A program made the translations under genes and the position numbers. A DNA stretch of 64,000 nt from Alphaproteobacteria bacterium (GTDB lineage Bacteria; Pseudomonadota; Alphaproteobacteria; MPNO01). The notes beneath the pieces are model-generated. The model searched no databases and was not told the origin of the DNA. It worked only from the letters and a program-made list of their open reading frames with translations. Below, piece after piece: positions 14,659-64,000 of the stretch. Within the stretch, counting starts at the first letter, position 1, and every line of letters begins with the position of its first letter. The stretch covers positions 2,112,001-2,176,000 of the forward strand of contig CBDFLJ010000001.1 of assembly GCA_965248835.1 (NCBI GenBank), given 5' to 3'.

Positions 14659-14688
14659 CCGTACTGGCGGACACTTTTCGCCACGCCC

Positions 14689-18239: not shown

Positions 18240-18353
18240 GGCCGAGGCCGAAGCCGGTCGCGCGGCGGCACGGCGCCTTCCGAGGCACCGCGTCCTCGCT
18301 CTTCAGCCGATTGCCGGCCTCGTCCCGTGTCGGCCTCCCGCATAGAGGGCTGG

Positions 18354-18610: not shown

Positions 18611-18619
18611 CTCACATGA

Positions 18620-18790: not shown

Positions 18791-19184
18791 CGGGAACGGC
18801 GTGTGCCGACTGCCGACGGCGACCGCCGCCTGTCGCGATCTCAACCCGAAAGGTTGCGTGATCCAACGGCTCTCGGTCGGCCTTGTATCGGTCCAAGCAA
18901 CGCAGTCCGTGGAAGAAGGCAATTGCGGTCTTCGACCCCCGCCTTCCCTCAGGGCACTGCGGCGATGACGAGCTCTCGTGCCTTTCGCAGCCTGAATTGC
19001 AGCCTGGTCCAGGCGCGAGCTGCCCGTTGTCCGGCCCCTTCCTCGACCGGCCAGGCTCCGACCCCAGGGTTCGCCCTCGTTTTGTAGGCGCACGCCCTGA
19101 ACCCGATCGGCTTCCCCTCCCAATCGCCTGTGGAGTAACATGGCAACGCTTGGGAAGTCTGCGGAAGGGTGACCCGGTTTGGGC

Positions 19185-20552: not shown

Positions 20553-20699
20553 TGGCGACTGCCGACAGAGCCGCTGATCCGCGCGCATCCCGGAGCAACG
20601 GCACGGTTGTCTTCAATACAGGGCTCACCGTAATAAGGGGCTCACCGTCTGTTTTGCATGACATGAGGTCGTCCGAGGGTGGTCGACTTCGACAGCCCT

Positions 20700-20970
20700 C
20701 CTCCGCACAGAGAGTTCCGCCTCCGCCTCGCGCCGCCGGATCAGCCCCTCGAGCTTGCGCCCACCGGCCCACACCCGGCGCCGGAACTCCCGCGGCACCG
20801 CGCCGTGCTCCTGGCGGTTGACCTGGCGCCTCAGCGTCGAGCGCTGCAGCGCGCCAGCGCCGAGATTGAAGGTGAACGAGCCCAGTGCATCGAACCGACC
20901 GTCCTCGAGCGGCACCGGGATGAGCCGCAGCACCGCCCCCTCGGCGGTCTCGACGTCGCGGCGCAGACCG
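20700..20970 (-). pseudogene. Phage lysozyme (GH24 endolysin) C-terminal remnant
   Basis: LRRDVETAEGAVLRLIPVPL...FDALGSFTFNLGAGALQRSTLRR...WAGGRKLEGLIRRREAE; catalytic N-terminus absent. Confidence 0.82.
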
Positions 20971-21273
20971 ACCCAATCATTGTTGGTATTTTGATTTCAG
21001 TCGATTTCGCAAGGCAATAAGCGTTCAAAACGGTGCGCAGCAGGCTCCGAGTAACAGATTGATTTACCTGGTGTTTTTGACGTTACCCGAAACGGGTACC
21101 TCGGCCCGAAGTGCACACCCTTTAGAGAATATGGGCGAAGAGAGAAAGAAAACGGCCCAAAACGACGGTCTGGCCGGCGGACGAGGTTCACGGCTACTAG
21201 CGCCAATGCCGCGGTAGTCTTGCGGCTCGGGGCCATGCCGCGCTGCGGCAGAGAATTCACTCTCTCAAGGTAA

Positions 21274-21366
21274 TGGCGGAGGGAGAGGGATTCGAACCCT
21301 CGATAGAGGTATCACCCCTATAACGGTTTAGCAAACCGCCGCCTTCAGCCGCTCGGCCACCCCTCC
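21274..21366 (-). tRNA. tRNA-Ser (anticodon GCT)
   Basis: GGAGGGGTGGCCGAGCGGCTGAAGGCGGCGGTTTGCTAAACCG, long variable arm, GGTTCGAATCC T-loop, encoded CCA; 93 nt. Confidence 0.97.
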
Positions 21367-21395
21367 GGTCCGGTGCGCCTCACGCACCGCCGGCC

Positions 21396-21425
21396 CTTCT
21401 AGACGGCGGGATCGGGTGCTGTCAA
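21396..21425 (-). promoter_or_regulatory. Sigma70 promoter for tRNA-Ser
   Basis: TTGACA (21425-21420) then TAGAAG 18 nt downstream on the minus strand, about 30 nt before the tRNA. Confidence 0.6.
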
Positions 21426-21582
21426 TCGCCCGGCCAGGCGCGATCCGGTTGGGACAGGCTCCGGCCGGTTGCGCCGAACGATCGCGCGGCGACGGCGCCT
21501 CGCCGGCGACGGAGCGCCGCCGAGGGATCGGTCGCAATGTCGGCGCTCGAATATTCACCGGCCGAATAGCCCGGCCCGCCAA

Positions 21583-21706
21583 GCCGGCGGTCGAGGGCTG
21601 CGCACAGCCGCTCGACCGCCGCGCCGCGCCGCCTTGCTGCGCCTGGATCTTGCCGTAGAACAGCTCCCAGGCCTTGTCGGAATAGCCCGGACCGGCGCGC
21701 CGATGC
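21583..21706. repeat. Direct repeat copy A: displaced 3' end of the GST gene plus hairpin
   Basis: Aligns to 29722-29865 with a few substitutions and a 20-nt deletion that removes the stop codon. Confidence 0.92.
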
Positions 21707-21830
21707 CGGCCTCTCGCGCGAGCACCCGCGTGGCGGAGACCGAGGGCGCCAGCCGCGATATCTTCCTCGCGCCCGGAAGGCCCGCAACCTCGCGCAGCAT
21801 GGTCGTTTTGCCGCTGCGGGTATGCCCCGC
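21701..21830 (-). pseudogene. Remnant of a conjugative relaxase-helicase (TrwC/TraI/TraA-type helicase motifs I and Ia)
   Basis: GHTRSGKTTMLREVAG...LAPSVSATRVLAREAGI resembles GxAGxGKTTML...LAPSASAA..L..EAGI. Confidence 0.62.
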
Positions 21831-22113
21831 ACGCCGACCAGAAGGGTGTGCGAGCACAGCACCGTCTTGCCCGCCTCCTTCTGGCCCCGGCGCATTGCCC
21901 AGCGTCGCCGCCGGCGCCTCACGCGCCTGGATTGTCGGTCGGCACGCGAGTTTGGCCGCGACAGGCGTGCTATCCTGTTGATTGCGTGCGGGTACAGGGG
22001 GACGGTCACATGTGCGCCAAACTTTGCGCCGGTCGAGAGGCCGGAAATTGCCACGCGGACGTTGTGGCGGTGAACGCGGCCGGCGGCGGATAGAGACAAG
22101 CGGAGGTCTGAGG

Positions 22114-47114: not shown

Positions 47115-47282
47115 ATGGCCAAACCAACCACGACCCTGATCAAGCTCGTCAGCAGTGCCGATACCGGCTACTTCTACGTCGCCAAGAAGAACACCCGAAC
47201 CACGACCGACAAGCTCGAGTTCCGCAAGTACGACCCGATCGCCCGCAAGCACGTGGTCTTCAAGGAATCGAGGATCAAGTAA
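47115..47282 (+). CDS. rpmG: 50S ribosomal protein L33 (absent from the ORF track)
   Basis: [26 protein letters not shown]...[18 protein letters not shown], 55 aa. Confidence 0.97.
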
Positions 47283-49068
47283 CCGGCGCCGCGCCGGCCG
47301 GCGGCGAGTCGACGCGTATCGACAGCTCGCGCAGGCGATCCTCTGCGACGGGTGCCGGCGCCTGCATCATCAGATCCTGGGCCTGCTGGTTCAAGGGGAA
47401 CAGGGTGACCTCGCGGATGTTGGGCTCATCGGCCAGCAGCATCACCATGCGGTCGATGCCCGGCGCCGAGCCGCCATGCGGCGGCGCACCGAACTTCAAC
47501 GCATTCAGCATGCCGCCAAACCGCTGCTCGACCTCCTCGCGGCGGTAGCCGGCGACCTCGAAGGCCTTGTACATGATGTCCGGTCGGTGGTTGCGGATCG
47601 CCCCGCTGGACAGCTCGACTCCGTTGCAGACGATGTCGTACTGATAGGCCATCACATCCAGGGGATCTTGGGTTTCCAGCGCTTCGAGACCGCCCTGCGG
47701 CATCGAGAACGGGTTGTGGCTGAACTGGATCCGGCCGGTGGCCTCGTCGCGTTCGTACATCGGGTAGTCGGTGATCCAGCAGAATTCGAACCGGTCGGCG
47801 GCGATCAGGCCGAGCTCCTCGCCGATCCGCGTGCGCGCCAACCCGGCCAGCCGGGCCGCACCCTCGGCCTTGTCGCAGGCAAAGAACACCGCATCGCCGT
47901 CGCCCACACTGGCCCGGTTGCGCAGCGCCGCCATCCGGTCCTCGTCGAGGAACCGGGCGATCGGGCCCTTCGCCTGGCCGCCTTCGAAGATGATGTAGCC
48001 CAGCCCGCCCGCGCCCTGCTCGCGCGCCCAGTCGTTGAGCTTGTCGAAGAAGCTGCGCGGTTGGGACGCGGCACCGGGCGCGGGAATCGCCCGGACCACC
48101 GCCCCGGTCTCGATCGGGCGCGCGAAGATCTTGAACGCCGTGCCGCACCAGACGTCGGTAGCGTCGGCGATTTCCAGCGGGTTGCGCAGGTCCGGCTTGT
48201 CGGTGCCATAGCGCAACATGGCATCGGCGAAGGCGATGCGCCGGAACGGCGCGGGCGAGACCGCCCGGCCTTCGGCGAACTCCTCGAAGAGACCGCCGAG
48301 CACCGGCTCGATGGCGGCGAACACGTCGTCCTGGGTGACGAAGGACATCTCGACATCGAGCTGGTAGAACTCGCCCGGCGAGCGGTCCGCGCGCGCATCC
48401 TCGTCACGGAAGCACGGCGCGATCTGGAAATAGCGATCGAAGCCCGCGACCATGATGAGCTGCTTGAACTGCTGCGGCGCCTGGGGCAAGGCGTAGAACC
48501 GGCCGGGGTGAAGCCGGCTCGGCACGAGAAAGTCGCGCGCACCCTCCGGACTGGCCGCGGTCAGGATCGGCGTCTGGAACTCGGTGAAGCCGGATGCGGT
48601 CATCCGGCGTCGGATCGATTGGATCACCGAGCTGCGCAGCATGATGTTGCGCTGCATCTTCTCCCGCCGCAGGTCGAGGAAACGGTATTTGAGCCTGACC
48701 TCCTCGCCGTAATCGCGGTCGCTGTTGACTTCGAGCGGCAACGTCTCGGCCGGCGCCTGCAGGGTGAAGACCTCGATCGACAGCTCGACCTCGCCGGTAG
48801 GCAGGTCGGGATTGACCGTGTCCGCACTGCGCGGCACGACCGGGCCGGTCACCGTGATCACCGCCTCGAGTCGGGCCGCCTCGACCGCTTTGAAGCTCGG
48901 GCTGTCGGACTCGATCACGCACTGGGTGACGCCGAACTGGTCCCTCAGATCGATGAACAGCAGGTTCCCGTGGTCTCGCTTGCGGTGAACCCAGCCCGAC
49001 AGCCGCGCGGTCTGGCCCTGGTGCCCGAGCCTCAACTCACCGCAGGTGTGCGTGCGATAGGCATGCAT
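47275..49068 (-). CDS. aspS: Aspartate--tRNA ligase (probably non-discriminating)
   Basis: [29 protein letters not shown]. Confidence 0.97.
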
Positions 49069-49229
49069 CGGTCTGCCTCTGTCGATCGATCTTGGGACGG
49101 CCTCGCGATGGGGTACGGGTCTGCCGCGAGGCGGGCGCAAAAGCGCATGGGCGGCTGGTTTTGTCAAGCAAACCGGGGCCTTGCTGCGCGCGCTTTTCGG
49201 GTCGGGGCAAACCGTGTATAGACCGCGCC

Positions 49230-50384
49230 ATGGACGTCATCGTCGACACCGATACACTCAGCGCTTTCTGTCATCGGGTCGGTGAATCGGACTACGTCAC
49301 CGTCGATACGGAGTTCATCCGCGACAAGACCTTCTGGCCGCTTCTGTGCCTGGTCCAGGTCGCCGGACCCGAAGAGGCCGTAGCGATCGACGCGCTGTCG
49401 AAGACGATCGACCTGGCGCCGCTTTTTGTGCTGATGAACGACCCCCGCGTGCTCAAGGTCTTCCATGCTGCGCGCCAGGATGTGGAGATTTTCTACCATC
49501 TCGACGGGCGCGTGCCGGCGCCGCTGTTCGACACCCAGGTCGCCGCCATGGTGTGCGGCTTCGGCGAATCGGTCGGCTACGACCGGCTGGTCTCCAAACT
49601 TGCCCGTGCCACGATCGACAAGTCCCAGCGCTTCACCGACTGGTCCCGCCGGCCGCTGAGCAAGAAGCTGATCAACTACGCGATCTCGGACGTCACCCAT
49701 CTCCGCGTAGTCTACGAAAAGCTGTCGGCCCAGCTCTCAGGCAACCGCCGGGCCGGATGGCTGTCGGAGGAGATGGCGACGCTGACCGACCCGGCGACCT
49801 ACCGCCAGGCGCCCGAGGATGCCTGGCGGCGGGTCAAGAACCGGTTGCACAAACCGCGCCACATCGCGATCTTTCGCCGCCTGGCCGCCTGGCGCGAGGC
49901 GGAGGCGCAGCGTCGCGACGTGCCGCGCAACCGGATCCTGCGGGACGAGGCGCTGTGCGAGATCGCCGCACGCGAGCCGCGGACCACACAGGATCTGTCG
50001 CTGTTGCGCGCGCCGGGCCGCGAGCGGATCAGTCATCAGACGGCGCAGGCGGTCATCGACATCGTCGCCGAGGTCTGCGCGGCCCCGCCCTCGACCTATC
50101 CCGAGGCCAAGCCGGTTGCCCCGCCGGCCAATCACATCGGGCCGACCGCCGATCTGCTCAAGGTTCTGCTCAAGATGCGCTGTGAGGAGTACTGCGTCGC
50201 CCAGAAGCTCATCGCCACGGTCGGTGACGTCGAGGCGATCGCCGCCAATGACAAGGCCGATGTCGCGGCGCTGTACGGCTGGCGGCGCGAGATCTTCGGC
50301 AAGGATGCGCTCGCGCTCAAGCACGGCCGGATTGCGCTGACTATCGACGACGGCGATCTCAGAATCATTCGCCGTGAGCGCTGA
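49230..50384 (+). CDS. rnd: Ribonuclease D
   Basis: [32 protein letters not shown] domain. Confidence 0.96.
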
Positions 50385-51138
50385 ACGGGGCGAGCCGGGG
50401 CGGATCCGTAGCGCCACCGTCATTTCCCATGTCGGGTTCGAGGATCTCGGCCGGCTGGCGCCGCTGCTGGCCGAGCGCGGCGTTGCCGTGCGCCATGTCG
50501 ACGGCCCGCGCGAGGACCTCGCGGCGCTGGATCCGGCCGAACCGGACCTGTTGGTGGTTCTTGGCGGGCCGATCGGCGCCTATGAAACCAATTCCTATCC
50601 GTTTCTCGTCCGCGAGACCGCGATCATCGAGGCGCGGCTCGCCGCCGATCGGCCGACGCTCGGCATCTGCCTCGGCGCGCAGCTCATGGCCCAGGCGCTG
50701 GGGGCGCGGGTCTACCCATCGGGCGTCAAGGAGATCGGCTGGTCGCCGCTGGACCTGAGCGCGGCAGGGCGCCGATCGTGCCTGGCGCCGGTCGGCGCGC
50801 CGGGGCTGTCGGTGCTGCACTGGCACGGCGATACCTTCGACATGCCCGGCGGGGCGGTCCATCTGGCATCCAGTGCGGTGTGCGACAACCAGGCCTTCGG
50901 CTGGGGCGTCAACGGGCTGGGGCTCCAGTTCCATCTAGAGACCGGTCACGCGGCTCTGGAGTCATGGTTCGTCGGGCACGCGGTCGAGATCGCCGGGGCC
51001 GGGCTCTCGGTCGAGGCCTTGCGGGCCGACAGCGCGCGTCTGGCGCCGGCCTGCAACGCAGCGGGACGGACGGCGCTGGCGGCCTGGCTCGATGGCCTGA
51101 CTACCGGTGGAGGACACGGCGGATCAGCGGGACCGTGA
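50374..51138 (+). CDS. Type 1 glutamine amidotransferase-like protein
   Basis: LGICLGAQL, WHGD, QFHLE triad. Confidence 0.9.
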   Translation: MSAERGEPGRIRSATVISHVGFEDLGRLAPLLAERGVAVRHVDGPREDLAALDPAEPDLLVVLGGPIGAYETNSYPFLVRETAIIEARLAADRPTLGICLGAQLMAQALGARVYPSGVKEIGWSPLDLSAAGRRSCLAPVGAPGLSVLHWHGDTFDMPGGAVHLASSAVCDNQAFGWGVNGLGLQFHLETGHAALESWFVGHAVEIAGAGLSVEALRADSARLAPACNAAGRTALAAWLDGLTTGGGHGGSAGP

Positions 51139-51751
51139 TCGGCCGGTGTTCGGCGAGCGCCAGGGCGTCGGCCTCCGCGATGGTCCGTCTGGCGGCCTCG
51201 AAGCTTCGCTCCATGTGGCGGACGAGATAGCCGATCACATCCTCGCCCGCATCGAGTTGGCGGTCGCGCAGCATCTTGGCGAGGACGGCGGCGATCAGGG
51301 CGTCGTCGGGTCGGCCGATCGTGACGGTGGGCGCCGAGCGCAGCCGCGAGACCAGGTCCGGAAGACGATCGTGCCATCGCCCCGGGGGCACGCGTGCGGT
51401 TGCAAGGACATCGACGGCGGCATCCTTGGCCCGGTTGAGCGCGTGGAACAGCGCGACGTCATCGTCGGCCTCATCGACCGCCTCGATCACCAGATGGCAC
51501 GGACCCACGGCGTCGGGGTCGATCCGCTCGGCGCCGAGCATGGCCGCGCCCGACACCGCACGCCAGACATGGGCAAGGTGGGTCTTACCGCCGCCTTCCG
51601 GGCCGCACAACACCAGCACCCGCCCGGGCCAGTCAGGCCAGGCATCGACCCACCTGAGCGCATCGCGGTTGCTGTCGGCGACCAGAAAATCCTCGCGCCC
51701 GTAGGCCGGCCGCTGCTCCAGCGCCAGGGGGAGCTGCGTTTCAGCCGCCAT
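51101..51751 (-). CDS. hdaA: HdaA/DnaA regulatory inactivator-like ATPase
   Basis: QLPL clamp-binding motif, GPEGGGKTHL, LPDLVSRL, MERS. Confidence 0.88.
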   Translation of the reverse strand: MAAETQLPLALEQRPAYGREDFLVADSNRDALRWVDAWPDWPGRVLVLCGPEGGGKTHLAHVWRAVSGAAMLGAERIDPDAVGPCHLVIEAVDEADDDVALFHALNRAKDAAVDVLATARVPPGRWHDRLPDLVSRLRSAPTVTIGRPDDALIAAVLAKMLRDRQLDAGEDVIGYLVRHMERSFEAARRTIAEADALALAEHRPITVPLIRRVLHR

Positions 51752-52817
51752 CGGACTCCGGGCCGTCCGGGGCATAGAGTGGGCTCGCCTGATACCGGGT
51801 GATGACGAAGCGGGCCAGCACGCCGATCGTGGCCGCGGCCGGCACCGCCAGCATGATGCCCAGGAACCCGAACAGCGCACCGCCGGCAAGCAGAGCGAAG
51901 ATCATCCAGACCGGGTGCAGCCCGACCCGGTCGCCGACCAGCTTGGGGGTGATGAAATTGCCCTCGGCGATCTGGCCGATGGCAAAGACGCCGGCGATCA
52001 TCGCGACCGGCTGCCAGCTATCGAACTGGGCGAAGGCGAGCCCGAGGCCGAGCACCAGTCCGGTGAGCATGCCGAAATAGGGGACGAACGAGATGAGTCC
52101 GGTGACCAGCCCGACGACGATGCCGAATTCGAGCCCGACGACCGACAGGCCGATCGCGTAGAAGATCCCCAGCCCGAGGCAGACGACCGCCTGGCCGCGC
52201 GCGAATCCGGCCAGGGTCCGGTCGATCAGCCGGACCTGCTCGCGGATGGTCTCGGCGTTCCCGCGGGGCAGCCAGCGATCGATGCTTGCGATGATCAAAT
52301 CCCAGTCGCGCAGCAGGTAGAAGGCCACGATCGGGGTGATCACGACCAGCGACAGCAGGTTGAACAGCGCCAGTCCGCCGCTCCAGATCCCCGACGCGAG
52401 CCGGCCCAGCCAGCCGACGACGGTCGCCGCCGTGCCGCTGGCCGCCTCGCGCAGGCGCGCGATGTCCTCTTCCGACATGTTCGCCTGGACGATGTTCAGC
52501 GCCTCCTCCGCGCCGGCGCGCAGAATCTCGGCATAGACCGGCACCCGGCTGATGAAGCCCAGCACCTGGGATTGCAGCAGCGGCACCAGAAGGACCAAGA
52601 ACGCGGCGACTGCGACCAGGAAGACGATCGTCAAGGCGGTCGCGGACAGCGCGCGCGACAGTCCCCATCGTTCCAACCGATCGGCTACCGGGTCGAGGAA
52701 GTAAGCGACCGCCATGCCGAGCACGAAAGGCAGCAGGATCGCGCGCAGCAGGTAGACAACGATCAGGAGCGCCAGCAAACCGAAGAGCCAGAGCGCGAGC
52801 CTGCGATCCCGGCTCAT
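51741..52817 (-). CDS. AI-2E family transporter
   Basis: AYFLDP, FVPYFG, PKLVGDRVGLHP. Confidence 0.92.
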   Translation of the reverse strand: MSRDRRLALWLFGLLALLIVVYLLRAILLPFVLGMAVAYFLDPVADRLERWGLSRALSATALTIVFLVAVAAFLVLLVPLLQSQVLGFISRVPVYAEILRAGAEEALNIVQANMSEEDIARLREAASGTAATVVGWLGRLASGIWSGGLALFNLLSLVVITPIVAFYLLRDWDLIIASIDRWLPRGNAETIREQVRLIDRTLAGFARGQAVVCLGLGIFYAIGLSVVGLEFGIVVGLVTGLISFVPYFGMLTGLVLGLGLAFAQFDSWQPVAMIAGVFAIGQIAEGNFITPKLVGDRVGLHPVWMIFALLAGGALFGFLGIMLAVPAAATIGVLARFVITRYQASPLYAPDGPESDGG

Positions 52818-53359
52818 TGCACCCGTTCCGGCCGCAGCAGCCGGCGCCAGCACCAGACCAGGTACCAGCTCCCCGAGGCGATCGTCGAGGCGATGACCAC
52901 ATACCCCAGCACGTCGACCATGCCGAGCAGGTCGAGCGCAAGCGCCAGGTCGCCCAGCACGACGGCCACGAAGAATACCTGGACGCCGGTATTGATCCGG
53001 CTGAGCTGGGCCGCGCGGTCGGGGAACGGCGCATTGAGCAGCACCATCAGCCCGACGCCGCAAACAATCAGGAAATCACGCAACACGACGATGGCGACCA
53101 CCGGCATGGCGATTGCGCCCTGGAGGCCGAGCACGATGTAGACGCTGACGATCAGGGCCTTGTCGGCGAGCGGGTCAAGGATGCGCCCGGCGCGCGAGCG
53201 CTGATGGAGCAGCGTGGCAATCGTCCCGTCGACGGCATCGGATACGCCGGCGAGCGCGAAGGCAACGAACGCCCAGCCATAGCGACCTTCGAGGATCAGA
53301 TGCACGATCAGCGGGACGGCCAGAAGCCGCGCCAGCGTGATCGTGATGGGTATATTCAT
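52814..53359 (-). CDS. CDP-alcohol phosphatidyltransferase
   Basis: SDAVDGTIA...GRILDPLADK. Confidence 0.9.
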   Translation of the reverse strand: MNIPITITLARLLAVPLIVHLILEGRYGWAFVAFALAGVSDAVDGTIATLLHQRSRAGRILDPLADKALIVSVYIVLGLQGAIAMPVVAIVVLRDFLIVCGVGLMVLLNAPFPDRAAQLSRINTGVQVFFVAVVLGDLALALDLLGMVDVLGYVVIASTIASGSWYLVWCWRRLLRPERVQ

Positions 53360-54546
53360 TCCGGCCCGGCCTCCCCGGTCTCCTCGTCGGCCGCAGGAGT
53401 GCTCTTGGGCAGGGCCCGCGCGTTGCCTCGGTCCGTCTCCCGGCGCGCCAGGCGGAGCACCCAGTCCTCGTCCTCCCGGGACAGGCGCAGGTCCCTGCGG
53501 ACCAGCGCGCCGGCAAGCTGGCGTTGATCGCCGTAATAGCGCAGCCTGATGTGCGCCTGCCCGCGGGACAGCGACAGGACGCGGCTCTGCTCGATCGAAG
53601 GGATCTCGGCCAGGGCGCGGGAGATCCGCACCCATTGCGCGAGCCCAGCGATGGGAACGACGGCCTGGAGCTGGTTTTCCTGATCGAAGCGCAGCATGTG
53701 GCGCGCCTTCCACGCCTCCTGGAGTCCGCGCGCGGTCCGGTGCGCCGCTGACCGGACGAGCTGGTCCACCGTTTCCGCGGCCGCCGCCCGATAGCTTTCG
53801 ATGATCGTCCGGCGGCCGGGGCCCATGCCGTACCGGCTCAATGTCACCTGGACCAGCGGGCGCCGGTCGATCCCGTGGGACAGGGCGGCGATGGCGACGA
53901 CGATTTCGGCAGTGTCGTAGCGCGCAGCGATCGCCTGCAGCCGGGCCGGATTGCCGTTGGCGGCCTGTGCAGCGCTGATGTCCCGGACGTCCTGCAGGTC
54001 GCCCAAGGGGACGACCAGCGGCACCAGATCGCCGGTATCGGGAAGGTTCGACCAGGCCTCGCGCCACAGGTTGGGCTGGTCCCACAACAGGTAGGTGCCG
54101 GCGCTGCGCAAAACCGGCAGGACCAAGGTCGGCCGGCCCGTGGTTTCGGCGAACGCAATGCCGGTCGCGCGCAGGAATCGGCGCACCGAGTCGCGGTCGA
54201 ACTGGAAGGTCAGCCGAGCGAGGTAGCGAACCGTGGAGGTCTTTTCGTCGGCGACCTCGAAGCTGCGGACCATCGGGGCCACCTCGGCATGGCCCAGGCG
54301 CGGGACGTTCGCCGAATCGGCGGCCTGGACGATGCGATCGATCAGGCGCCGGAATGCGAGCACATGGCCCTGGGCGATGGCGAGCTCGCGCGCCGCGTTC
54401 GCGTTCGCGGCGGTCGCATCAACGGCGACCCCGGTGACCCGAAAGACCGGGTCATCGGCCGCCCGAGACCCCGCCCCCCCAGCGGCGGCGACGAAGATCG
54501 CCACGGCAAGCCCGCCCACGCGCGCGGCAGCAAGGAGGAATGTCAT
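53356..54546 (-). CDS. DUF2066 domain exported protein; start uncertain
   Basis: Signal peptide, VAVDATAANA.AAR, VPLGDLQD; usual position divergent from purM. Confidence 0.75.
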   Translation of the reverse strand: MTFLLAAARVGGLAVAIFVAAAGGAGSRAADDPVFRVTGVAVDATAANANAARELAIAQGHVLAFRRLIDRIVQAADSANVPRLGHAEVAPMVRSFEVADEKTSTVRYLARLTFQFDRDSVRRFLRATGIAFAETTGRPTLVLPVLRSAGTYLLWDQPNLWREAWSNLPDTGDLVPLVVPLGDLQDVRDISAAQAANGNPARLQAIAARYDTAEIVVAIAALSHGIDRRPLVQVTLSRYGMGPGRRTIIESYRAAAAETVDQLVRSAAHRTARGLQEAWKARHMLRFDQENQLQAVVPIAGLAQWVRISRALAEIPSIEQSRVLSLSRGQAHIRLRYYGDQRQLAGALVRRDLRLSREDEDWVLRLARRETDRGNARALPKSTPAADEETGEAGPE

Positions 54547-54691
54547 TTTTCCCGTTCTCTGAGACGCCATACGAACACGGAAAACCGACGATTGAAAACC
54601 GCCGCCGTTCAACTATCCTCGCAACACCTGGAGGAGCGCCGACGCCGGCTCGTCCGGGTCATAGTACCATTTTCGACATTGCGGAGCAGTC

Positions 54692-55753
54692 ATTAACCGT
54701 TCCCGTTACAAGCAGGCCGGTGTCGACGTGGACGCCGCCGCAGATCTGGTGGATGCGATCCGGCCGATGGCGCGCGCGACCGCCCGGCCCGGCACGATGG
54801 GCGAGATCGGCGGGTTCGGCGGGCTGTTCGACCTCAGGGCGGCGGGCTTCGAGGACCCGGTTCTGGTGGCCGCGACAGACGGCGTCGGCACCAAGCTCAA
54901 GATCGCCATAGACACCGGCAGGCACCGCACGATCGGCATCGATCTGGTGGCGATGTGCGTGAACGACATCGTGGTGCAGGGCGCGGAGCCATTGTTTTTC
55001 CTTGATTATTATGCGATGGGCAGGCTCGAGCGCAGGGTCGCCGAGGATGTCCTGGCGGGCATTGCCGCGGGCTGCGAGCAAGCCGGATGCGCGCTGATCG
55101 GCGGCGAGACAGCGGAGATGCCCGGCCTCTACGGTGTCGGCGACTACGACCTAGCGGGCTTCGCGGTGGGCGCGGCCGAGCGTGGTGGATTGCTCACCGG
55201 CGAAACGATCACCGAAGGCTGCACCGTTCTTGGTCTCGCCTCGAGCGGCGTGCATGCAAACGGGTTCTCGCTGGTCCGCCGCATCGTTGCCGACGCCGGT
55301 CTTGGCTACGAGGACGCAGCGCCGTTCTCCGGGACAAGCCTCGCCGAGGCGCTGCTGGCGCCGACCCGGATCTATGTCCGGGCGGCGCTTGCCGCCCACA
55401 GGGCCGGCCTGGTGCGCGGCCTGGCCCACATCACCGGCGGCGGGCTCATCGACAATATCGCGCGTGTTCTGCCCGAGGGCCTCGCAGTCGAGATCGATCC
55501 GGCCGCCTGGCCCCTGCCGGCGGTCTTTTCCTGGCTCGCGGAGGCTGGCGCAGTGCCTCCGGCCGAGCTTGCCCGGACGTTCAACTGCGGAATCGGAATG
55601 GCGGTGATCGCCGATCCCGGCGATTCCGCCCCGGCGCGGCGCGTTCTGGAATCCGCTGGCGAGCGAGTCTGGCCGATCGGTGCGGTGGTTCGGCGCACGC
55701 CCGGCCTGCCGGCGGTGCTGTTGTCCGACAACGGCGCGGCATGGCGCGGCTGA
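54692..55753 (+). CDS. purM: Phosphoribosylformylglycinamidine cyclo-ligase (probable ATT start)
   Basis: [36 protein letters not shown]. Confidence 0.96.
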
Positions 55754-56406
55754 GGCTCGCGGTCCTGATCTCCGGACGCGGGTCGAACCTGCAAGCCCTG
55801 ATCGATGCCTGCGCGGAGACGGGCTATCCCGCCGAGATCGGCCTGGTGATCTCCAACCGTGCCGATGCGGCGGGGCTCAAGCGCGCCGAGAGGGCGGGCA
55901 TCGCAACCCGGGTGATCGACCATCGCGGGTTCCCCGACCGGGAATCCTTCGAGCGCGCGCTCGATGAGGCGATCACCGCCTCGGGCTGCGGCCTGGTGTG
56001 CCTGGCCGGGTTCTTGCGCCTTCTGACCGCTTGGTTCGTCGGGCGCTGGCGCGACCGGCTGATCAACGTCCACCCCTCGCTGCTGCCGGCCTACAAGGGC
56101 TTGGACACCCATGCCCGCGTGCTGGCCGATGGCGTCCGGATCACCGGCTGCACGGTGCATTTTGTGCGCGCGGCGATGGACGCGGGACCGATCATCGTCC
56201 AGGCCGCCGTCGCGGTTCTGCCCGATGACGATGCCGGGCGGCTCGCGGCCCGCGTGCTGGAGGCCGAACACCGCTGCTATCGGCTGGCCGTGCGCCTGAT
56301 TGCCGAAGGGCGCGTGGCGGTGTGCGAGGAGCGCGTGGCGATCGCAGGGCCGGTTGCGGTCGGGGAGACGCTGTTCGTGCCGGCTGGCACGGCTTCGCCG
56401 TCCTGA
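55741..56406 (+). CDS. purN: Phosphoribosylglycinamide formyltransferase
   Basis: [21 protein letters not shown]. Confidence 0.97.
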
Positions 56407-56470
56407 GCACCGCTGCGGCCGCGCCGGCGCCCGTGCCGATGGCGTTCTTTCTTATGCCGGCGGGGACGCC

Positions 56471-56893
56471 TCAGCCGACGATTTCGAGGTCGGAGAAAAA
56501 GAATCCGATCTCGATGGCCGCGTTGTCCGTCGAATCGGAGCCATGCACCGAGTTCGCTTCGATCGATTCACCGAACTCGTTGCGGATCGTCCCCTTCGCG
56601 GCGTTGGCCGGGTTGGTCGCCCCCATCACCGCTCGGTTCTTGGCAACGGCGTCCTCGCCCTCGAGCACCTGGACCACGACCGGGCCCGATGACATGAAGG
56701 TGCACAGATCGTCGAAGAACGCCCGCTCGGCATGGACGGCATAGAACCGTTCGGCCTGTTCCTGGCCCAGCCACAAGCGGCGCTGAGCGACGATCCGAAG
56801 GCCAGCGGACTCCAGGCGCGCGTTGATCTGACCCGTCAGGTTGCGGCGGGTCGCATCAGGCTTGATGATCGAGAGGGTTCGTTCAACGGCCAT
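56471..56893 (-). CDS. ndk: Nucleoside-diphosphate kinase
   Basis: [18 protein letters not shown]. Confidence 0.98.
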
Positions 56894-57029
56894 ATCTTGC
56901 TTATCGTCCCTGTGCCAGATGAGCGCGGCCTTATATCTGCATCCCCGACGGGCTTCAACCGGCTTGTCTCGATCGGCGCGGCGGGTTTGAATCGGTCGGC
57001 ATCCGACCGCAAGGCTGGGATATGTGCCG

Positions 57030-57905
57030 ATGGATCAGAAAAAGGTCGTCGTAACCGGCGGCAGCGGCAATCTCGGTGCGACAACCATCCAGGAGCTGAT
57101 CGCGTCCGGCTATGCGCCGCTGAACCTCGACCTCGCCGCGCCGCGCGAAAAGCGCTGCGAGTCCTGGACCTGCGACCTGACGCGCTCGGGCGACCTCTAC
57201 GAGGCCGTCCGGGGCGCGGATGCGGTGATCCACCTGGCGGCCTATCAGGCACCGGACATGGCATCGGACAGCGAGGTGTTCAGGAACAACGTCACCGCCA
57301 GCTACAACGTCCTCAAGGCGGCGACGGACATGGGGGTGCGGCGCGTGGTGATGGCCTCGTCGGTGGCGGCCTACGGCTTCCTCTACGCGCCCAGGATGTG
57401 GTCGCCGGACTATCTGCCGCTCGATGAAGACTATCCCTGCAGGCCGCAGGACCCGTACGCGCTGTCGAAGGTGTTCGGCGAACAGCTCGCGGATTCGTTC
57501 GTCTCGCTGGGCGCGACCTCGGTAGCCAGCCTCCGGCTGAGCGGGGTCAATTTCGATCCCACCTTCGCATCGCTGCCTCAACGGTGGGCCGATCCGGGGG
57601 CCAAGATCGGAACGTTCTGGAGCTATGTCGACGTGCGCGACGCCGCCCTCGCCTGCCGGCTCGCCGTCGAGGCCGAGATCGGCGGGCACCGGGTCGTCAA
57701 CATCGCCGCGGCGACCAGCCGCCACCTCGAGCCCACCGCCGATCTCGTGCGCGAGCATCTGCCCGGAACCAGGATCAAAGAGGGCTTGACGGGACACTGG
57801 GGCGGGCTCGACACCACCCGGGCGAAGGATCTTCTGAGGTTCGAGGCCAAGCATGTGTGGCGGGACTATATCCGTCCCGACGGCAGCCCGATCGCAAGGC
57901 GATAG
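57030..57905 (+). CDS. NAD-dependent epimerase/dehydratase family protein
   Basis: [17 protein letters not shown]. Confidence 0.9.
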
Positions 57906-57936
57906 AGCCCGTTGCCGACGCGCCGGACCTGGCCGC

Positions 57937-58389
57937 TCAGCCGTCCTTCCTTTCCCAGCCGCCGCGCCCGGTCTGCTGCCAATAGGTGAGGCCGTGGCCA
58001 TCGGCGGCGTAGGCCTTCCAGCGCGTGCGGGCGGTTCCGACGGCCGCCTCGTCGTTGCCGTCAAACATCTCAAGACAGCGCTGGAAGGCGCCGACATCGG
58101 CCGAGCACGCGCCGTCGGTCAGCACCAGAATGGCGGCCCCGTTGGGGTTCTCGTCTTCCTCGGTGATCCAGATCGGCTGGTCGGCAGCGGCGCCGCTGCG
58201 GGCGGTGCCGTGCGGCAGGAAGGAGGCCGGATCGTAGGTCCAGAGCACCGAATCGAGCATGTCGACCCGCTCGGCGGAGCCCGCCATCACCACCGCACGC
58301 GCGCCGCTGGCATAGACCTTCTCCAGCAGCTTCGGCAACGCACGCTCGAGCGGGCTGCGCGTGAGGTGGTAGAAGCCGATATCGGTCAC
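57937..58389 (-). CDS. holC: DNA polymerase III subunit chi
   Basis: FYHL, LWTY..SFLPHG, ARTRWK. Confidence 0.93.
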   Translation of the reverse strand: MTDIGFYHLTRSPLERALPKLLEKVYASGARAVVMAGSAERVDMLDSVLWTYDPASFLPHGTARSGAAADQPIWITEEDENPNGAAILVLTDGACSADVGAFQRCLEMFDGNDEAAVGTARTRWKAYAADGHGLTYWQQTGRGGWERKDG

Positions 58390-58414
58390 TGATGGCGCCT
58401 CCTCGACCGGGAGC

Positions 58415-59914
58415 TCAGCCCTCGTAGTTGGCGCGCACCAGCTCGTCGAGCAGCCGGACGCCGAACGCGGTGCCGCCCTTCGGCACGGTGGGCGTGTCCG
58501 CCTTCGACCAGGTCACCCCGGCGATGTCGAGATGGGCCCACGGCGTGCCGTCCTTGATGAACCGCTTGAGGAACTGGGCGGCGGTAATCGACCCGCCGTC
58601 GCGCCCGCCGACATTCTTCATGTCGGCAATGTCGGAGTTGATTTGCTTGTCGTAGGCCTCGCCCAACGGCATCCGCCACACCGGCTCACCGACGGCGTTA
58701 CCCGATCCCAGGAGCCGCTCGGACAGCGTGTCGTCGTTGGCAAACAGGCCGGCACGCTCGTGGCCGAGCGAGATGATGATCGCGCCGGTCAGCGTCGCGA
58801 GATCGACGATCGTGTGCGGGTTGTGCTTCTCCTGGCAATACCAGAGGGCGTCGCCCAGCACCAGCCGGCCCTCGGCATCGGTGTTGATCACCTCGACCGT
58901 CTGACCCGACATGGTGGTGACCACGTCGCCCGGGCGCTGGGCGGTCGCCGAGGGCATGTTCTCGACCAGGCCGACGATGCCCACGGCGTTGACCTTGGCC
59001 TTGCGCCCGGCGAGCGCCCGCATCAGCCCGATCACCACCGCAGCGCCGGCCATGTCCCACTTCATGTCTTCCATGCCACCGGCCTGCTTGATCGAGATGC
59101 CGCCGGTGTCGAACGTCACGCCCTTGCCGACGAAGGCGATCGGCCGCTTCTGCTTGGTCCGCGGCACGCCGTTCCAACGCATCACGACCAGGCGGGGATC
59201 GTGGGCGCTGCCCTGGGCGACGCCGAGCAGGGCGCCCATGCCGAGCTTCTTCATCTGCCTTGTATCCAGGACCTCGACCGCGACGCCGAGCTCGGTCAGC
59301 GCCGCCGCACGCTCGGCCAGGCTCTGCGGGAAGATCACGTTAGCCGGCTCGGAGACCAGGTCGCGGGTCATGAAGACGCCTTCGGCGACCTTGGCCAGCG
59401 GCGCGAAGGCTTTCCTCGCCGCGGCATGCGCCGACGTCATCACGCTCAGGGCGCCGAGGCTGGGCTTGTCCTCGGTCTTCTCCTTGGTGCGGTACTTGTC
59501 GAACCGGTAGGCCCGCAGCATCGCCCCGTAGCCGAGATTGGCCGCAAACGCGCCGGCCGCCATGACCGCCGCTGGTGGGCTTTCCAGGGAGACCGCCACC
59601 GACTTGTCGCCGCCGTTGGCGAGGCTGGCGACGATGGTGCCGCCAGCGGACTGGGCGGCCTTGGCGTCGAGCTTATCGGCCTTGCCGAGGCCCAGCACCA
59701 TCACCCGACTCGCCGCCAGCCCGACGGGTGCGATCAGCATCAGCGTCTGGTTGGCCTTGCCGGTGAACCGGCTCGATTTGATCGCCCGCGAGACTCCCCC
59801 GTCCATCGCCTTATCGACCCGCGCCGCAGTCGCGTCCAGGGTGCCGCCCTCGAATGCGCCGATCACGAGTGCGCCGCTGCGTGGAAGGTTGGGCGCCGCA
59901 AAACTGATCTTCAT
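58415..59914 (-). CDS. pepA: Leucyl aminopeptidase
   Basis: GKGVTFDTGG, MKWDM, NTDAEGRL, HLDIAG. Confidence 0.97.
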   Translation of the reverse strand: MKISFAAPNLPRSGALVIGAFEGGTLDATAARVDKAMDGGVSRAIKSSRFTGKANQTLMLIAPVGLAASRVMVLGLGKADKLDAKAAQSAGGTIVASLANGGDKSVAVSLESPPAAVMAAGAFAANLGYGAMLRAYRFDKYRTKEKTEDKPSLGALSVMTSAHAAARKAFAPLAKVAEGVFMTRDLVSEPANVIFPQSLAERAAALTELGVAVEVLDTRQMKKLGMGALLGVAQGSAHDPRLVVMRWNGVPRTKQKRPIAFVGKGVTFDTGGISIKQAGGMEDMKWDMAGAAVVIGLMRALAGRKAKVNAVGIVGLVENMPSATAQRPGDVVTTMSGQTVEVINTDAEGRLVLGDALWYCQEKHNPHTIVDLATLTGAIIISLGHERAGLFANDDTLSERLLGSGNAVGEPVWRMPLGEAYDKQINSDIADMKNVGGRDGGSITAAQFLKRFIKDGTPWAHLDIAGVTWSKADTPTVPKGGTAFGVRLLDELVRANYEG

Positions 59915-60025
59915 GGAGGCTCTCCCGTTCGCCGTGGCCGATGTCGGCCCGGACCTTAAGCACGCCGGGCCGGGCATGCAAAGACCGGTTTCCGTTTTCG
60001 CCGATTCCCTGTCGGGTTCGGCGCC

Positions 60026-60964
60026 TTAGCCGATCAGGTCCGGCGTGCCGGGGGCGAACAGCGCCTCGATATCGAGCCTGTGCGGGATGATATGCTGGTC
60101 GCACGCGGTCTGGATCAGGGCTTCCAGGGCCTTGCGGTTGGGCTCCACACCATAGGGAAACGGGTCGCCGCCGAGCCCGTCGCCGAGCGAAACGGTCAGT
60201 TGGTCCTCCTCTGACAGGCTGCCCGATCGGTCGAGTCCGGAAAGATAGGCAGCCTTGGAAACGGCGAGCGCGCCGAACAGGTCGGCCGCCAGGCCCGGGT
60301 GCCGCCGCAGCAGGTCGTCGCGCACCACGACGGTGTGATTGACCGGATAGACGCCGGTCCTGCGATAGGAGGCGAAACCCGCCTCGACGGCATCGGGGAT
60401 CAGCGGCTCGACCGTCGGCGGCACCGCGCCCACCGCGCCGATTGCCGCGACGGCTTCGCCGGATGCAAACAGGTCCGCGATCGCACGGCCCTGCAAATCG
60501 TAATCGGCATTGGGCGGTGGGCGGAACTCCGCGACATGCTCGTCATCGGTCGCGGCCCAGCGCACGCGGTCGAGATCCACACCCAGCTCGTTGGCCAGTA
60601 CGTAGCGCGCCCAGACCCCCGTGGTCACGGTGTAGCCACGGTTGACGGCAACCGTCTTGCCCTCCAGGTCCTTCGGTGTCGAGATCCCGGCGGTGGTGTC
60701 GTAGAAGATCGCCCCATGATGGAAATTCCGGGTCAGGAACACCGGCAGTGCGGTGAACGGCTTGCCGAAGGCCTTGGCGCACAGGTAGGTCGTGATCGGC
60801 ATCTCGCAGATGTCGAAGGCGAACTCGCGCACCATCCGGCGGGCGGCGACCAGGATGTTGTCGAAGGCCGGAAAGTCGATCCGGAATTCCTCACCCAGCG
60901 CGCCGCCGGCCTTCATCTGCCGCATCAGCCCGTAATCGCGCGTCGGCATGCTGAGCGTTTGCAT
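60026..60964 (-). CDS. 4,5-dihydroxyphthalate decarboxylase-like protein (periplasmic-binding fold, no signal peptide)
   Basis: FDICEMPITTY, LPVFLTRNFHH, YTVTTGVW, GVYPVNH, DPFPYGVEPNR. Confidence 0.75.
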   Translation of the reverse strand: MQTLSMPTRDYGLMRQMKAGGALGEEFRIDFPAFDNILVAARRMVREFAFDICEMPITTYLCAKAFGKPFTALPVFLTRNFHHGAIFYDTTAGISTPKDLEGKTVAVNRGYTVTTGVWARYVLANELGVDLDRVRWAATDDEHVAEFRPPPNADYDLQGRAIADLFASGEAVAAIGAVGAVPPTVEPLIPDAVEAGFASYRRTGVYPVNHTVVVRDDLLRRHPGLAADLFGALAVSKAAYLSGLDRSGSLSEEDQLTVSLGDGLGGDPFPYGVEPNRKALEALIQTACDQHIIPHRLDIEALFAPGTPDLIG

Positions 60965-61165
60965 CACCCCGGTCCCTTCAGCCAGGTCGTGCGGCACCGT
61001 CGTGGTCCGGCGCAACGCCGGGGACGGTATCGGAGGGGCTCGCGTCCAGCAACGGCGAAGTGCGGTCCTGCCGCTGAGACATGCTTGAATGGACCGCAGC
61101 GCGGCGCACGCGTATATAATCCGGTTGCGCGACGAAACATCTCACCTGGGTTGCGAAGCCGAACG

Positions 61166-62422
61166 ATGCGTTTGTTTCCATTGGTCGCAATCGTCGTCTC
61201 GGCCCTTGCCGTCACCACCGCGTGGGGGCAGGGCGTCCAGCGGATCGCCGCGGTGGTCAATGACGATGTCGTCTCGATCCACGACGTCAGGCAGCGCGCC
61301 CAATTGGCGATCTTCAGCAGCGGCATCCCCGACACCGCGGAGAACCGGCAGAGAATCGCAAGCCAGGTCCTGCGCGCCCTGATCGACGAGCGGCTGCAAC
61401 TGCAGGAAGCGAAGAAGCGCAGCATCTCGATCTCCCGGCGTGAGATCCGCGGCGGCATCGCCGAGATCGAAAAACGCAACCGCCTGGAGCCCGGCGCGCT
61501 CGAGAAGACGCTGCGCGACAACGGGCTGGGCTTTCAGACCATGGTCGACCAGATTACCGCGGGCATCGCCTGGCAAAAGCTGGTGCAGCGACGGCTGAGC
61601 CCGCGAATTTCCATCGGCGATGACGAGGTCGCCGAGGTGATCGCGCGCCTCAAGGCCACCAGGGGCCAGGACGAATATCGTCTGGCGGAGATCTATTTGG
61701 CCGTGGATTCGCCCGATGATGAGGCCGCCATCCGCCAGACCGCGGAACGGATGGTCGAGCAGATCCGCGCCGGCGCCCGGTTCGACGCGCTGGCGCGCGA
61801 GTTCTCCCAGAGTGCGACGGCCGCGGTCGGCGGCGATCTTGGCTGGGCGGCGCTGTCGGAAATCGACCCTGAAATCGTCGCGGCGATCAAGGAAATGGAG
61901 GAGGGCACGGTGCTCGATCCGGTGCGCACCCTGTCCGGGTTCCGCATCATCGCCCTGATCAGCAAGCGCAAGGTCGCGACCGCCGATCCGAAGGACATCA
62001 AGGTAACCTTGCGCCAAGTCTTGGCGCCGATCGAAGAGGGGGCCGGCGAGGGCGATATCGCGGCGAAGATCGACCGCGCAAATTCCGCGCGGGCCACGGT
62101 CTCGGGCTGTGATGAAGCGCCGGCGCTGGCCCGGCGCCTGGACGCCGAGACGCCCCTCGACCTCGGGACGCTGGCCATGGCCGACCTGTCGCCCCAGATC
62201 CGCAAGGCTATCTCCGGCGTCGCCGTCGGCGGCACGTCCGAGCCCGTGCGCGTGCCCGGCGGGCTGGTCATGCTGATGGTCTGCGACCGCCAGGCTCCGA
62301 TTGTTTCGCTGCCCGATGACCAGACCGTCCTCGACCAGATCCGCAACCGCCGGCTCGACCTGATGGCGCGGCGCTACCTTCGCGACCTGCGGCGCGCGGC
62401 GGTCATCGATGTCCGCGTCTGA
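61166..62422 (+). CDS. surA: SurA-type peptidylprolyl isomerase chaperone
   Basis: Signal peptide, IAAVVND, LIDERLQLQEA, FSQS..GGDLGW. Confidence 0.92.
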   Translation: MRLFPLVAIVVSALAVTTAWGQGVQRIAAVVNDDVVSIHDVRQRAQLAIFSSGIPDTAENRQRIASQVLRALIDERLQLQEAKKRSISISRREIRGGIAEIEKRNRLEPGALEKTLRDNGLGFQTMVDQITAGIAWQKLVQRRLSPRISIGDDEVAEVIARLKATRGQDEYRLAEIYLAVDSPDDEAAIRQTAERMVEQIRAGARFDALAREFSQSATAAVGGDLGWAALSEIDPEIVAAIKEMEEGTVLDPVRTLSGFRIIALISKRKVATADPKDIKVTLRQVLAPIEEGAGEGDIAAKIDRANSARATVSGCDEAPALARRLDAETPLDLGTLAMADLSPQIRKAISGVAVGGTSEPVRVPGGLVMLMVCDRQAPIVSLPDDQTVLDQIRNRRLDLMARRYLRDLRRAAVIDVRV

Positions 62423-62433
62423 GGCGGCTTAGC

Positions 62434-63477
62434 GTGCCCGAAGCCACAACGCGCCCGCTCGCCCTGACCATGGGCGACCCCGCCGGGATCGGCGGCGAGA
62501 TCGCGCTCAAGGCCTGGCAGAGGCTGCGCCGGTCCGACGACGCCGCGGTTTTCGTCTATCTGGGCGCACCCGACCCCCTGCGGGACCTGGCGGCCGGCAT
62601 GGGCCTCGCGGCCGAGATCCGCACGGTCTCCGCCCCCGCCGAGGCCTTGCGCGTCTTCGCCGATGCCCTCCCGGTCCTGCCGGTCGAGACCGCGGCGCCG
62701 GTCCGGCCGGGCATTCCGGACCCGGCCAACGCGCCGGCGGTGATCGCAGCGATCGATCGCGCGGTCGCGCTGGCGCGCGGCGGCGAGGTCGCCGGCGTTG
62801 TGACCAACCCGATCAACAAGGCGGTTCTCTACCGGCACGGCTTTCGCCATCCCGGACATACCGAATATCTCGCCCATCTGTGCGGCATCGCCACGCCGCC
62901 GGTGATGATGCTGGTCTCCGAGCAGCTCCGCGTCGTCCCGGTGACCATCCACCTCGCCCTTGCCGAGGCGATCAAAAGCCTCACGGCCGAGGCGATCATC
63001 GCCTGTGGCAGGATCACCGCGGCGGGGCTGGTCGACGATTTCGGCGTCAGCGCGCCGCGGATCGCCGTGGCCGGGCTCAATCCCCATGCCGGGGAGGCGG
63101 GGCACCTGGGTCGCGAGGAGATCGAGATCATCGCCCCGGCGGTGGCGGCGCTGCGGGCCGACGGTATCGCGGTCGCGGATCTGGCGCCGGCGGACACCCT
63201 GTTCCACGAGCGCGCGCGGCAAGGCTACGATGCGGTCCTTTGCATGTATCACGACCAGGCGCTGATCCCGCTGAAAACGCTCGACTTCGACGGCGGGGTG
63301 AACGTCACCTTGGGGCTGCCGATCGTGCGCGCCTCGCCGGATCATGGGACGGCTTTCGACATCGCCGGCCGCTTCATTGCCCGGCCGGACAGCCTGATCG
63401 CGTCGCTGCGGCTCGCAGCGCGGATGGCAGCGACCCGCGCCCGCGCCGAGCCGCGCCCGTGGAGCGTCCTTGCCTGA
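62434..63477 (+). CDS. pdxA: 4-hydroxythreonine-4-phosphate dehydrogenase
   Basis: [30 protein letters not shown]. Confidence 0.97.
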
Positions 63478-64000
63478 GGCGCTGCCGCCGCTCAGGGACC
63501 TGATCGCCCGGCATGGCCTGGGCGCCAGGAAGAAGCTGGGCCAGCATTTCCTGCTCGACCTCAACCTCACCCGCCGGATCGCCCAGGCCGCGGGCCCGCT
63601 TGCCGGTCGAACGGTGGTCGAGATCGGCCCGGGTCCGGGCGGACTGACCCGCGCGCTCCTGGAGACCGAGGCGGCCCGGGTCATCGCGATCGAGCGCGAC
63701 AAACGCTGCATTGCGGCCTTGGACGAGCTCGCTCGGGCCTGCCCCGGCCGGCTGGAACTGGTCGAGGCCGACGCGCTGGAGGTCGATCTCTCTCGTTTCG
63801 GGCGCGACCTCGCGGTGGTCGCGAACCTGCCCTACAACATCGCCACACCGCTCCTGATCGGCTGGCTGCGGTCGATCGGCGTCATCGCCGCGATGACCCT
63901 GATGTTCCAGAAGGAAGTCGCCGAGCGCATTCTGGCCGCGCCGGGAAGCGCCGCCTACGGCCGGCTGGCGGTCATCACCCAATGGCTGTGCACGCCTCGG
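63470..64000 (+). CDS. rsmA: 16S rRNA adenine dimethyltransferase, 3'-truncated by window edge
   Basis: [33 protein letters not shown]; TTG start after GGAG. Confidence 0.95.

Follow-up and report, generated by a model that had tools for sequence, protein, structure and literature searches.

A decarboxylase homologue in place of lptF-lptG-lptD between pepA and surA in an uncultured Rhodospirillales-like alphaproteobacterium

Introduction

In Escherichia coli, the genes relevant here lie at two separate loci, namely an lptD-surA-pdxA-rsmA operon and a divergent pepA / lptF-lptG arrangement. Many Alphaproteobacteria have these gene families too, with both adjacencies fused into one cluster. The resulting canonical order, pepA / lptF-lptG-lptD-surA-pdxA-rsmA, which the initial annotation of the present locus had taken as its reference, can indeed be seen complete in Sinorhizobium meliloti and Pseudorhodobacter: the annotated S. 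meliloti sequence CP090106.1 reads holC-pepA / lptF-lptG-lptD-PPIase-pdxA-rsmA, and Pseudorhodobacter turbinis, examined by tblastn, carries the same full cluster.

Other Alphaproteobacteria show partial versions of this arrangement. Methylobacterium bullatum has pepA / lptF-lptG-lptD-pdxA-rsmA, with surA not detected, and Sphingomonas parapaucimobilis has holC-pepA / lptD-surA-pdxA-rsmA, with lptFG absent from the slot. In Azospirillum brasilense 2020WEIHUA_K and Sp7 the order is holC-pepA / one LptF/G-family gene - surA - pdxA, the slot permease being 36% identical to S. meliloti LptG, and the annotated A. thermophilum reads GNAT / lptG-PPIase-pdxA. Finally, in a MAG (L004) an MFS transporter gene is followed by surA-pdxA-rsmA. 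Among the eight loci that hold surA, apart from that of the window (the whole stretch of 64,000 nucleotides analysed here), lptD is found directly upstream of surA in three and not in the remaining five, which include the two A. brasilense strains; these comparators come from PLSDB matches and one SurA search and were thus selected by match, so that they form neither a random nor an unbiased sample.

For Azospirillum, the whereabouts of lptD can be followed, as the gene is present in all seven matched records. It lies at 634306 in NZ_CP059450.1 and at 869070 in Sp7 p1, where the lptG-surA loci are found at 75737 and 471194, respectively; the distance amounts to about 560 kb in the former and to about 400 kb on the same replicon in the latter. 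Its neighbours are a RhlE-like helicase gene in Sp7 p1 and metNIQ in Niveispirillum. A literature search for lptD together with surA and pdxA in Alphaproteobacteria found no paper. Here, we describe a locus in which both ends of the canonical cluster flank a single gene of a different family.

Results

Both ends of the canonical cluster enclose one gene on the pepA strand

The interval from 59915 to 61165 of the window extends exactly from the start codon of pepA to the start codon of surA; the pepA ATG is at 59914, so that the interval begins with the base directly in front of this gene. On the minus strand, pepA (58415-59914; leucyl aminopeptidase of family M17; 732 bits with NCBIfam NF002077, whose cut-off is 471, and E 2.6e-125 with Pfam PF00883) is contiguous with holC downstream of it (57937-58389, minus strand; DNA polymerase III chi subunit; Pfam PF04364 with E 6.8e-37). 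On the plus strand, surA (61166-62422) is followed by pdxA (62434-63477; 476.6 bits with NCBIfam NF003699, whose cut-off is 378, and E 1.5e-101 with Pfam PdxA) and by rsmA, also named ksgA (about 63470-64000; TIGR00755 with 164.8 bits, Pfam RrnaAD with E 1.7e-33), which is truncated by the window end and whose exact start is uncertain. These three genes are contiguous and tightly packed, with a gap of 11 bp between surA and pdxA and an overlap of 8 bp between pdxA and rsmA. Both ends of the canonical cluster have thus persisted.

The surA product, a periplasmic chaperone/PPIase with one parvulin domain, starts with the ATG at 61166 and has a signal-peptide-like N-terminus, MRLFPLVAIVVSALAVTTAWGQ. 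It matches the Pfam families SurA_N (2e-15) and Rotamase (2.4e-21) and scores 97.8 bits with the NCBIfam SurA model, which is under the cut-off of 394. A longer plus-strand frame of 707 amino acids (60299-62422) overlaps this gene, and the SurA families match it from residue 285 onward only.

Between the two blocks lies a single gene of 312 amino acids on the minus strand (60026-60964), hereafter gene X. It is separated from the pepA start by a spacer of 111 bp behind its stop codon (59915-60025) and from surA by a divergent spacer of 201 bp (60965-61165). The GC content at the three codon positions is 0.67/0.50/0.83 in X and 0.65/0.50/0.90 in pepA, and by this coding pattern X is a true gene. 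Across the region GC content is flat at 0.65-0.69 with no step, and a repeat search around the slot revealed short pairs at chance level only, with no repeats or IS ends at the junctions. Elsewhere in the 64-kb window a mobile-element island is present.

Compared to the clusters of S. meliloti and P. turbinis, the locus shares holC-pepA on one strand and surA-pdxA-rsmA on the other in the same orientation. It differs from them in having none of the three lpt genes, a stretch of about 4.6 kb in S. meliloti, and in carrying instead a single gene that is unrelated to these and shares the strand of pepA. With regard to the two E. coli loci, the window is without either group of lpt genes.

No lpt gene or remnant is found in the slot

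In all, 54 ORFs of the window (8 + 46) were scanned with Pfam, and none of them matched LptF_LptG (PF03739), LptD/OstA, LptC/E or any Lpx family. Using S. meliloti LptF, LptG and LptD as tblastn queries, there was no match at E<=1e-3 in the window, in the related locus of OZ241868.1 described below or in that of L004. With LptD of Sphingomonas and the LptF/G-family protein of Azospirillum as queries, E values did not fall below 0.7 in the window or 0.32 in OZ241868.1, and for the LptD queries the best window matches had E 2.9 or worse. Altogether, neither the 64 kb covered in the source nor the 21 kb covered in OZ241868.1 contained an lpt or lpx gene.

The layout agrees with these searches. 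No lptF-lptG pair diverges from pepA, whose upstream neighbour, X, is encoded on the same strand as pepA itself, and no lptD lies directly upstream of surA, where the 201-bp spacer is followed by X on the opposite strand. The spacers of 111 and 201 bp are too short for lpt remnants. Since the Pfam and tblastn searches were negative, the spacers are short, the GC content is flat and neither repeats nor IS ends are present, the absence of the lpt genes from this slot is confirmed in full. Thus, the initial annotation was right about the content of the slot, that is, lptF, lptG and lptD missing from it, one decarboxylase-like gene between pepA on the minus strand and surA-pdxA-rsmA, and no recognisable lpt debris.

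Gene X is a homologue of 4,5-dihydroxyphthalate decarboxylase

Gene X is truly homologous to 4,5-dihydroxyphthalate decarboxylase and shares its fold. A phmmer comparison aligned residues 43-308 of X with residues 64-344 of the enzyme from Comamonas testosteroni KF-1 (PDB 9jp7) at E 1.4e-26, and the AlphaFold model of X (pLDDT 95.8, based on an alignment of 41 sequences) had this 9jp7 structure as its top Foldseek match in the PDB, with E 3.9e-28, TM scores of 0.89/0.85 and 28% identity. The next fold matches, periplasmic binding proteins and THI5, reached TM scores of only about 0.5-0.57 (TauA 0.53). The label "decarboxylase-like" is also borne out by the names of the homologues: among the best 120, 29 rows are named, comprising 22 as 4,5-dihydroxyphthalate decarboxylase, six as ABC-type binding protein and one as hypothetical. 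In the 41 aligned homologues 61 columns are invariant; a literature search gave no paper on the 9jp7 active site among the matches listed. Pfam assigned no family to X at E<=1e-3, and at E<=1 NMT1/THI5 appeared with 16.7 bits, under its cut-off of 20.5.

As the binding-protein name is in use at NCBI for homologues, we also considered X as a periplasmic ABC substrate-binding protein and rejected this assignment: by eye, its N-terminus, MQTLSMPTRDYGLMRQMK, has no hydrophobic leader, no ABC permease or ATPase genes adjoin it, and the NMT1 score stays below the cut-off. Because of the missing leader and the missing ABC genes, X resembles a cytoplasmic enzyme and not a transporter subunit.

Besides the homology and the shared fold, X differs from the 9jp7 enzyme in lacking phthalate-pathway genes as neighbours: neither a dioxygenase nor a dehydrogenase gene is found at X, which is surrounded by pepA-holC and surA-pdxA-rsmA. 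On plasmids, paralogues with 35-42% identity to X are accompanied by amidohydrolases, by a gene of the aldolase/citrate-lyase family and by one resembling protocatechuate dioxygenase, and these contexts fit a decarboxylase of aromatic carboxylates. X is probably a non-oxidative decarboxylase of some aromatic or hydroxy-carboxylate. It has no connection to LPS.

A second genome shares the arrangement

The SurA search of genome contigs matched 599 stretches, two of which encoded relatives. The close one is OZ241868.1, the 3.87-Mb chromosome of an alphaproteobacterial MAG, which has the order holC-pepA-X / surA-pdxA-rsmA as in the window; the other is the L004 locus with its MFS transporter gene. 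Protein identities between the window and OZ241868.1 are 88% for HolC, 87% for PepA, 81% for X, 77% for SurA, 87% for PdxA and 86% for RsmA. Left of holC, OZ241868.1 has purQ and purC and the window has ndk together with an epimerase gene; given this difference, the conserved unit is exactly the holC-pepA-X / surA-pdxA-rsmA block.

This second genome bears directly on the concern, already raised in the initial annotation, that the junction might be an assembly artefact. In that case, a misjoin in a metagenome-assembled contig would have cut out the lpt genes, about 4.7 kb, or brought unrelated segments together. Such a scenario draws some plausibility from the fact that the closest relatives are MAGs and that the source may be one too. 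Against it, a separately deposited genome with 13-23% protein divergence shows identical junctions, with parts of the spacers conserved to either side of X, coding signal and GC content run continuously through the region and the junctions are free of repeats. Hence, the identical order in OZ241868.1 answers the misjoin concern, and we regard an artefact as having next to no probability.

Another possibility, in fact a variant of relocation, is that X was recently acquired by horizontal transfer and displaced the lpt genes in the source genome only. The X family is large, patchy and rich in paralogues, with 98 matching PLSDB records, up to six places per replicon and identities all below 60%, and the mobile-element island of the window would be compatible with such an event. 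But X occupies the same place in OZ241868.1, and its divergence runs parallel to that of GatB across three relatives: the identities of X and GatB are 87 and 88% for a 2,804,115-bp contig, 81 and 85% for a 3,868,867-bp contig and 68 and 78% for a 3,443,779-bp contig. In addition, the third-position GC content of X (0.83) is genome-typical, and neither IS ends nor repeats flank the gene. Because its divergence tracks that of GatB and there is no GC step, repeat or IS end, X looks like a long-standing resident of the lineage and not a fresh insertion, and a recent insertion confined to the source is accordingly improbable, even if it ranks ahead of the other alternatives considered in this work.

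The spacers contain conserved blocks next to pepA and surA

In the pepA-side spacer, the window and OZ241868.1 hardly differ from 59915 to about 59983, and the remainder has diverged. These conserved ~65 nt at pepA may act as a promoter or leader. In the spacer between X and surA, the conserved block comprises the 83 bp adjoining surA (61083-61165). It includes the TATAAT at 61115-61120 that had been pointed out ahead of surA and that the sequence confirms, 45 nt in front of the ATG. This hexamer is the sole exact copy in 64 kb; 1.77 copies are expected by chance, and 85 of 100 shuffled sequences contained at least one. As there is no -35 element at 16-18 nt from it and its counterpart in OZ241868.1 is TATAGT, a role as -10 element is plausible, though unproven. 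In line with this, a scan with the sigma-70 consensus returned no promoter-like site.

An ECF-sigma-like reading of the block upstream of surA (GGACC, 15 nt, CGTA) was also considered and set aside as speculation: no tool backs it, and the second element is AGTA in OZ241868.1. Rfam had no match at E<=1 in 59700-61400. The one terminator-like site found is located inside the start of surA, with 0.7 expected by chance, and there is none between X and pepA.

The source belongs to a Rhodospirillales-like lineage

With Azospirillum the window proteins share more identity than with Sphingomonas, namely 63 versus 55% for PepA, 65 versus 52% for PdxA and 59 versus 39% for HolC. In SurA, Azospirillum, Niveispirillum, Sphingomonas and Sinorhizobium are only 33-37% identical to the source lineage. 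For GatB, all relatives above 74% identity are MAG proteins, and the nearest ones with a taxon name come from a Stellaceae MAG (74%) and a Rhodospirillales MAG (73%). Judged by these protein identities, the source is an uncultured Rhodospirillales-like lineage. With the possibility of a chromid in mind, the window was also compared to PLSDB, which yielded four weak partial matches only, with identities of up to 80%.

The window, part of a 2.29-Mb contig and with a GC content of 68%, encodes SurA and an autotransporter, besides a periplasmic protease of family S41, numerous transporters and a broad set of catabolic enzymes. This inventory suggests an organism that does not look reduced, and the window gives no sign of a reduced or unusual envelope.

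Discussion

Our data allow a comparison of the vacant slot with the two lineages that are most informative for it. Azospirillum, which is nearest to the source among the named lineages whose DNA could be read, resembles it in having no lptD upstream of surA and no lptF in the slot. It differs in retaining one LptF/G-family permease in the slot and in the absence of X there; on Azospirillum chromids, no X orthologue was found among the matches listed (25 of 98 PLSDB records, with 10 organism names). S. parapaucimobilis shares with the window the lack of lptFG in the slot and the synteny of aspS-rnd-hda-purM-purN-ndk-holC-pepA, and it differs in retaining lptD beside surA.

These two lineages are also those for which the LPS status can be set against the slot. 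The LPS of A. brasilense, strain Sp7 included, is chemically characterised (review PMC4153317). According to a preprint, Sphingomonas makes no LPS and is without LpxC, LpxB and WaaA, encodes the whole Lpt system nonetheless and has its only reported lptFG homologues in a sphingolipid locus (10.64898/2026.04.12.717747). Since LPS-making Azospirillum has neither lptD nor lptF in the slot and LPS-free Sphingomonas has lptD there, slot occupancy does not predict the LPS status, and in these two informative cases the two are uncorrelated. The Azospirillum slot, without lptD and lptF, further illustrates that the cluster can come apart in an organism that makes LPS. The initial annotation had left open whether the three genes were moved or lost and had taken a loss as pointing to an LPS-free or remodelled outer membrane; the step from the slot to an LPS-free outer membrane is unsupported, and its logic is undermined by the comparison with Azospirillum and Sphingomonas.

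Based on these considerations, the locus would best be explained as an ordinary synteny break that became fixed in an uncultured Rhodospirillales-like lineage, with the lpt genes relocated elsewhere in the genome, and we assign a probability of about 0.9 to this explanation. Of the widespread alphaproteobacterial cluster holC-pepA / lptF-lptG-lptD-surA-pdxA-rsmA, both ends persist and the three lpt genes are gone from between them. These genes are predicted to reside elsewhere in the genome, as in Azospirillum, and X, on the strand of pepA-holC, now fills the slot. With lptD gone, surA-pdxA-rsmA would have to be transcribed from within the X-surA spacer of 201 bp, where the conserved block of 83 bp at surA is a candidate for promoter and leader. 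On the other side, pepA would retain its own conserved leader of about 65 nt, and as no terminator-like site lies between the genes, X may be read through into pepA-holC.

Some Rickettsiales are LPS-free, and a genuine loss has to be weighed for the present lineage as well. In that case, the lineage would be without LptF/G/D and perhaps without a lipid A pathway, and its outer membrane would be LPS-free or would receive LPS exported in another way. The usual slot is without an lpt gene in two related genomes (within 64 kb in the source and 21 kb in OZ241868.1), and LPS-free Alphaproteobacteria do exist, as described for Sphingomonas (preprint 10.64898/2026.04.12.717747). On the other hand, the slot is also empty or partly empty in LPS-producing Azospirillum, and Sphingomonas, the one free-living group of this kind, still encodes the whole Lpt system, as reported in that preprint, and keeps lptD in the slot. 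Moreover, the genome shows no signs of reduction, and the window represents only about 3% of the 2.29-Mb contig. Literature on the phylogenomic absence of lptD or lpxC contained nothing on Lpt-less Alphaproteobacteria among the matches listed. Taking the comparison and base rates together, on which this weighting is founded, relocation is far more likely than loss, and a genuine loss has only a very slim chance, somewhat below that of a recent insertion of X.

Relocation of the lpt genes thus remains the preferred reading. In its most specific form, the alternative would mean that a free-living GC-rich Rhodospirillales-like clade, comprising the source, OZ241868.1 and the genome on the 2.80-Mb contig, lost LptF, LptG and LptD and kept SurA and autotransported outer-membrane proteins, which we consider very improbable, at the lower end of what we concede to loss in general. 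If true, such a clade would be the first among free-living alphaproteobacterial lineages to lack the Lpt machine, going beyond the Lpt-keeping Sphingomonas. As it stands, the finding matters little and represents another rearrangement of a commonly conserved envelope-biogenesis cluster; it would become important only if lpt and lpx genes were co-ordinately absent from the closed chromosome of the relative, OZ241868.1. Its lesson is a methodological one: the absence of lpt genes from the slot between pepA and surA says nothing about the LPS status of the organism.

Gene order around pepA and surA in related loci

To the left of pepA, the order aspS-rnd-...-hda-...-purM-purN-...-ndk-...-holC-pepA is common to the window (47275-59914) and the Sphingomonas parapaucimobilis locus (L002, 1-13449). 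This long-range order is kept although the PepA protein of S. parapaucimobilis is only ~55% identical to that of the window, whereas in the much closer relative OZ241868.1 purQ and purC replace the flank left of holC.

In Methylobacterium bullatum (L012, NZ_LR743510.1), ~380 bp (10133-10513) lie between lptD and the next gene, pdxA. No surA was found in this locus at E≤1e-5; here surA itself is gone from the cluster. In Azospirillum thermophilum (L008, 8160-9640), the annotation divides the surA-like gene into two CDSs, one for a peptidylprolyl isomerase and one for a hypothetical protein, and its match to the window SurA is likewise in two parts. A frameshift or a split gene could account for this.

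The PLSDB records CP090106.1, NZ_CP104127/131/135, NZ_CP069303.1 and NZ_LR743510.1 are labelled 'plasmid' at sizes of 2.8-4.6 Mb. Core genes (holC, pepA, lptFGD, rsmA) are present on them, and the records have the look of chromosomes or chromids that were entered as plasmids.

Upstream regions of pepA and surA

In the alignment of the window with OZ241868.1, ~65 nt abutting the pepA start (59915-59983) are nearly the same, while the remaining spacer differs. This stretch is probably a conserved promoter or leader of pepA; a scan of 59700-61400 against Rfam gave no matches for it at E≤1. Upstream of surA, a conserved block (61083-61165) includes the elements CTTGAATGGACCGCAGC and GTATA(G)T, which are not spaced as in a sigma-70 promoter; an ECF-like promoter is possible.

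Other features of the window

An ORF on the reverse strand (9727-11586) joins a Peptidase_MA_2-like N-terminal part, which scored 27.9 bits and thus under the cut-off of 32.4, to an autotransporter beta-domain, an uncommon combination in one ORF. The region 11600-21900 is an island with lower and irregular GC3. Within it, a DDE transposase fragment lies at 11981-12319, an rve integrase at 15322-16200, an AAA ATPase at 19173-20552 and a truncated phage-lysozyme ORF at 20625-20996. The island looks like the debris of a mobile element or prophage.
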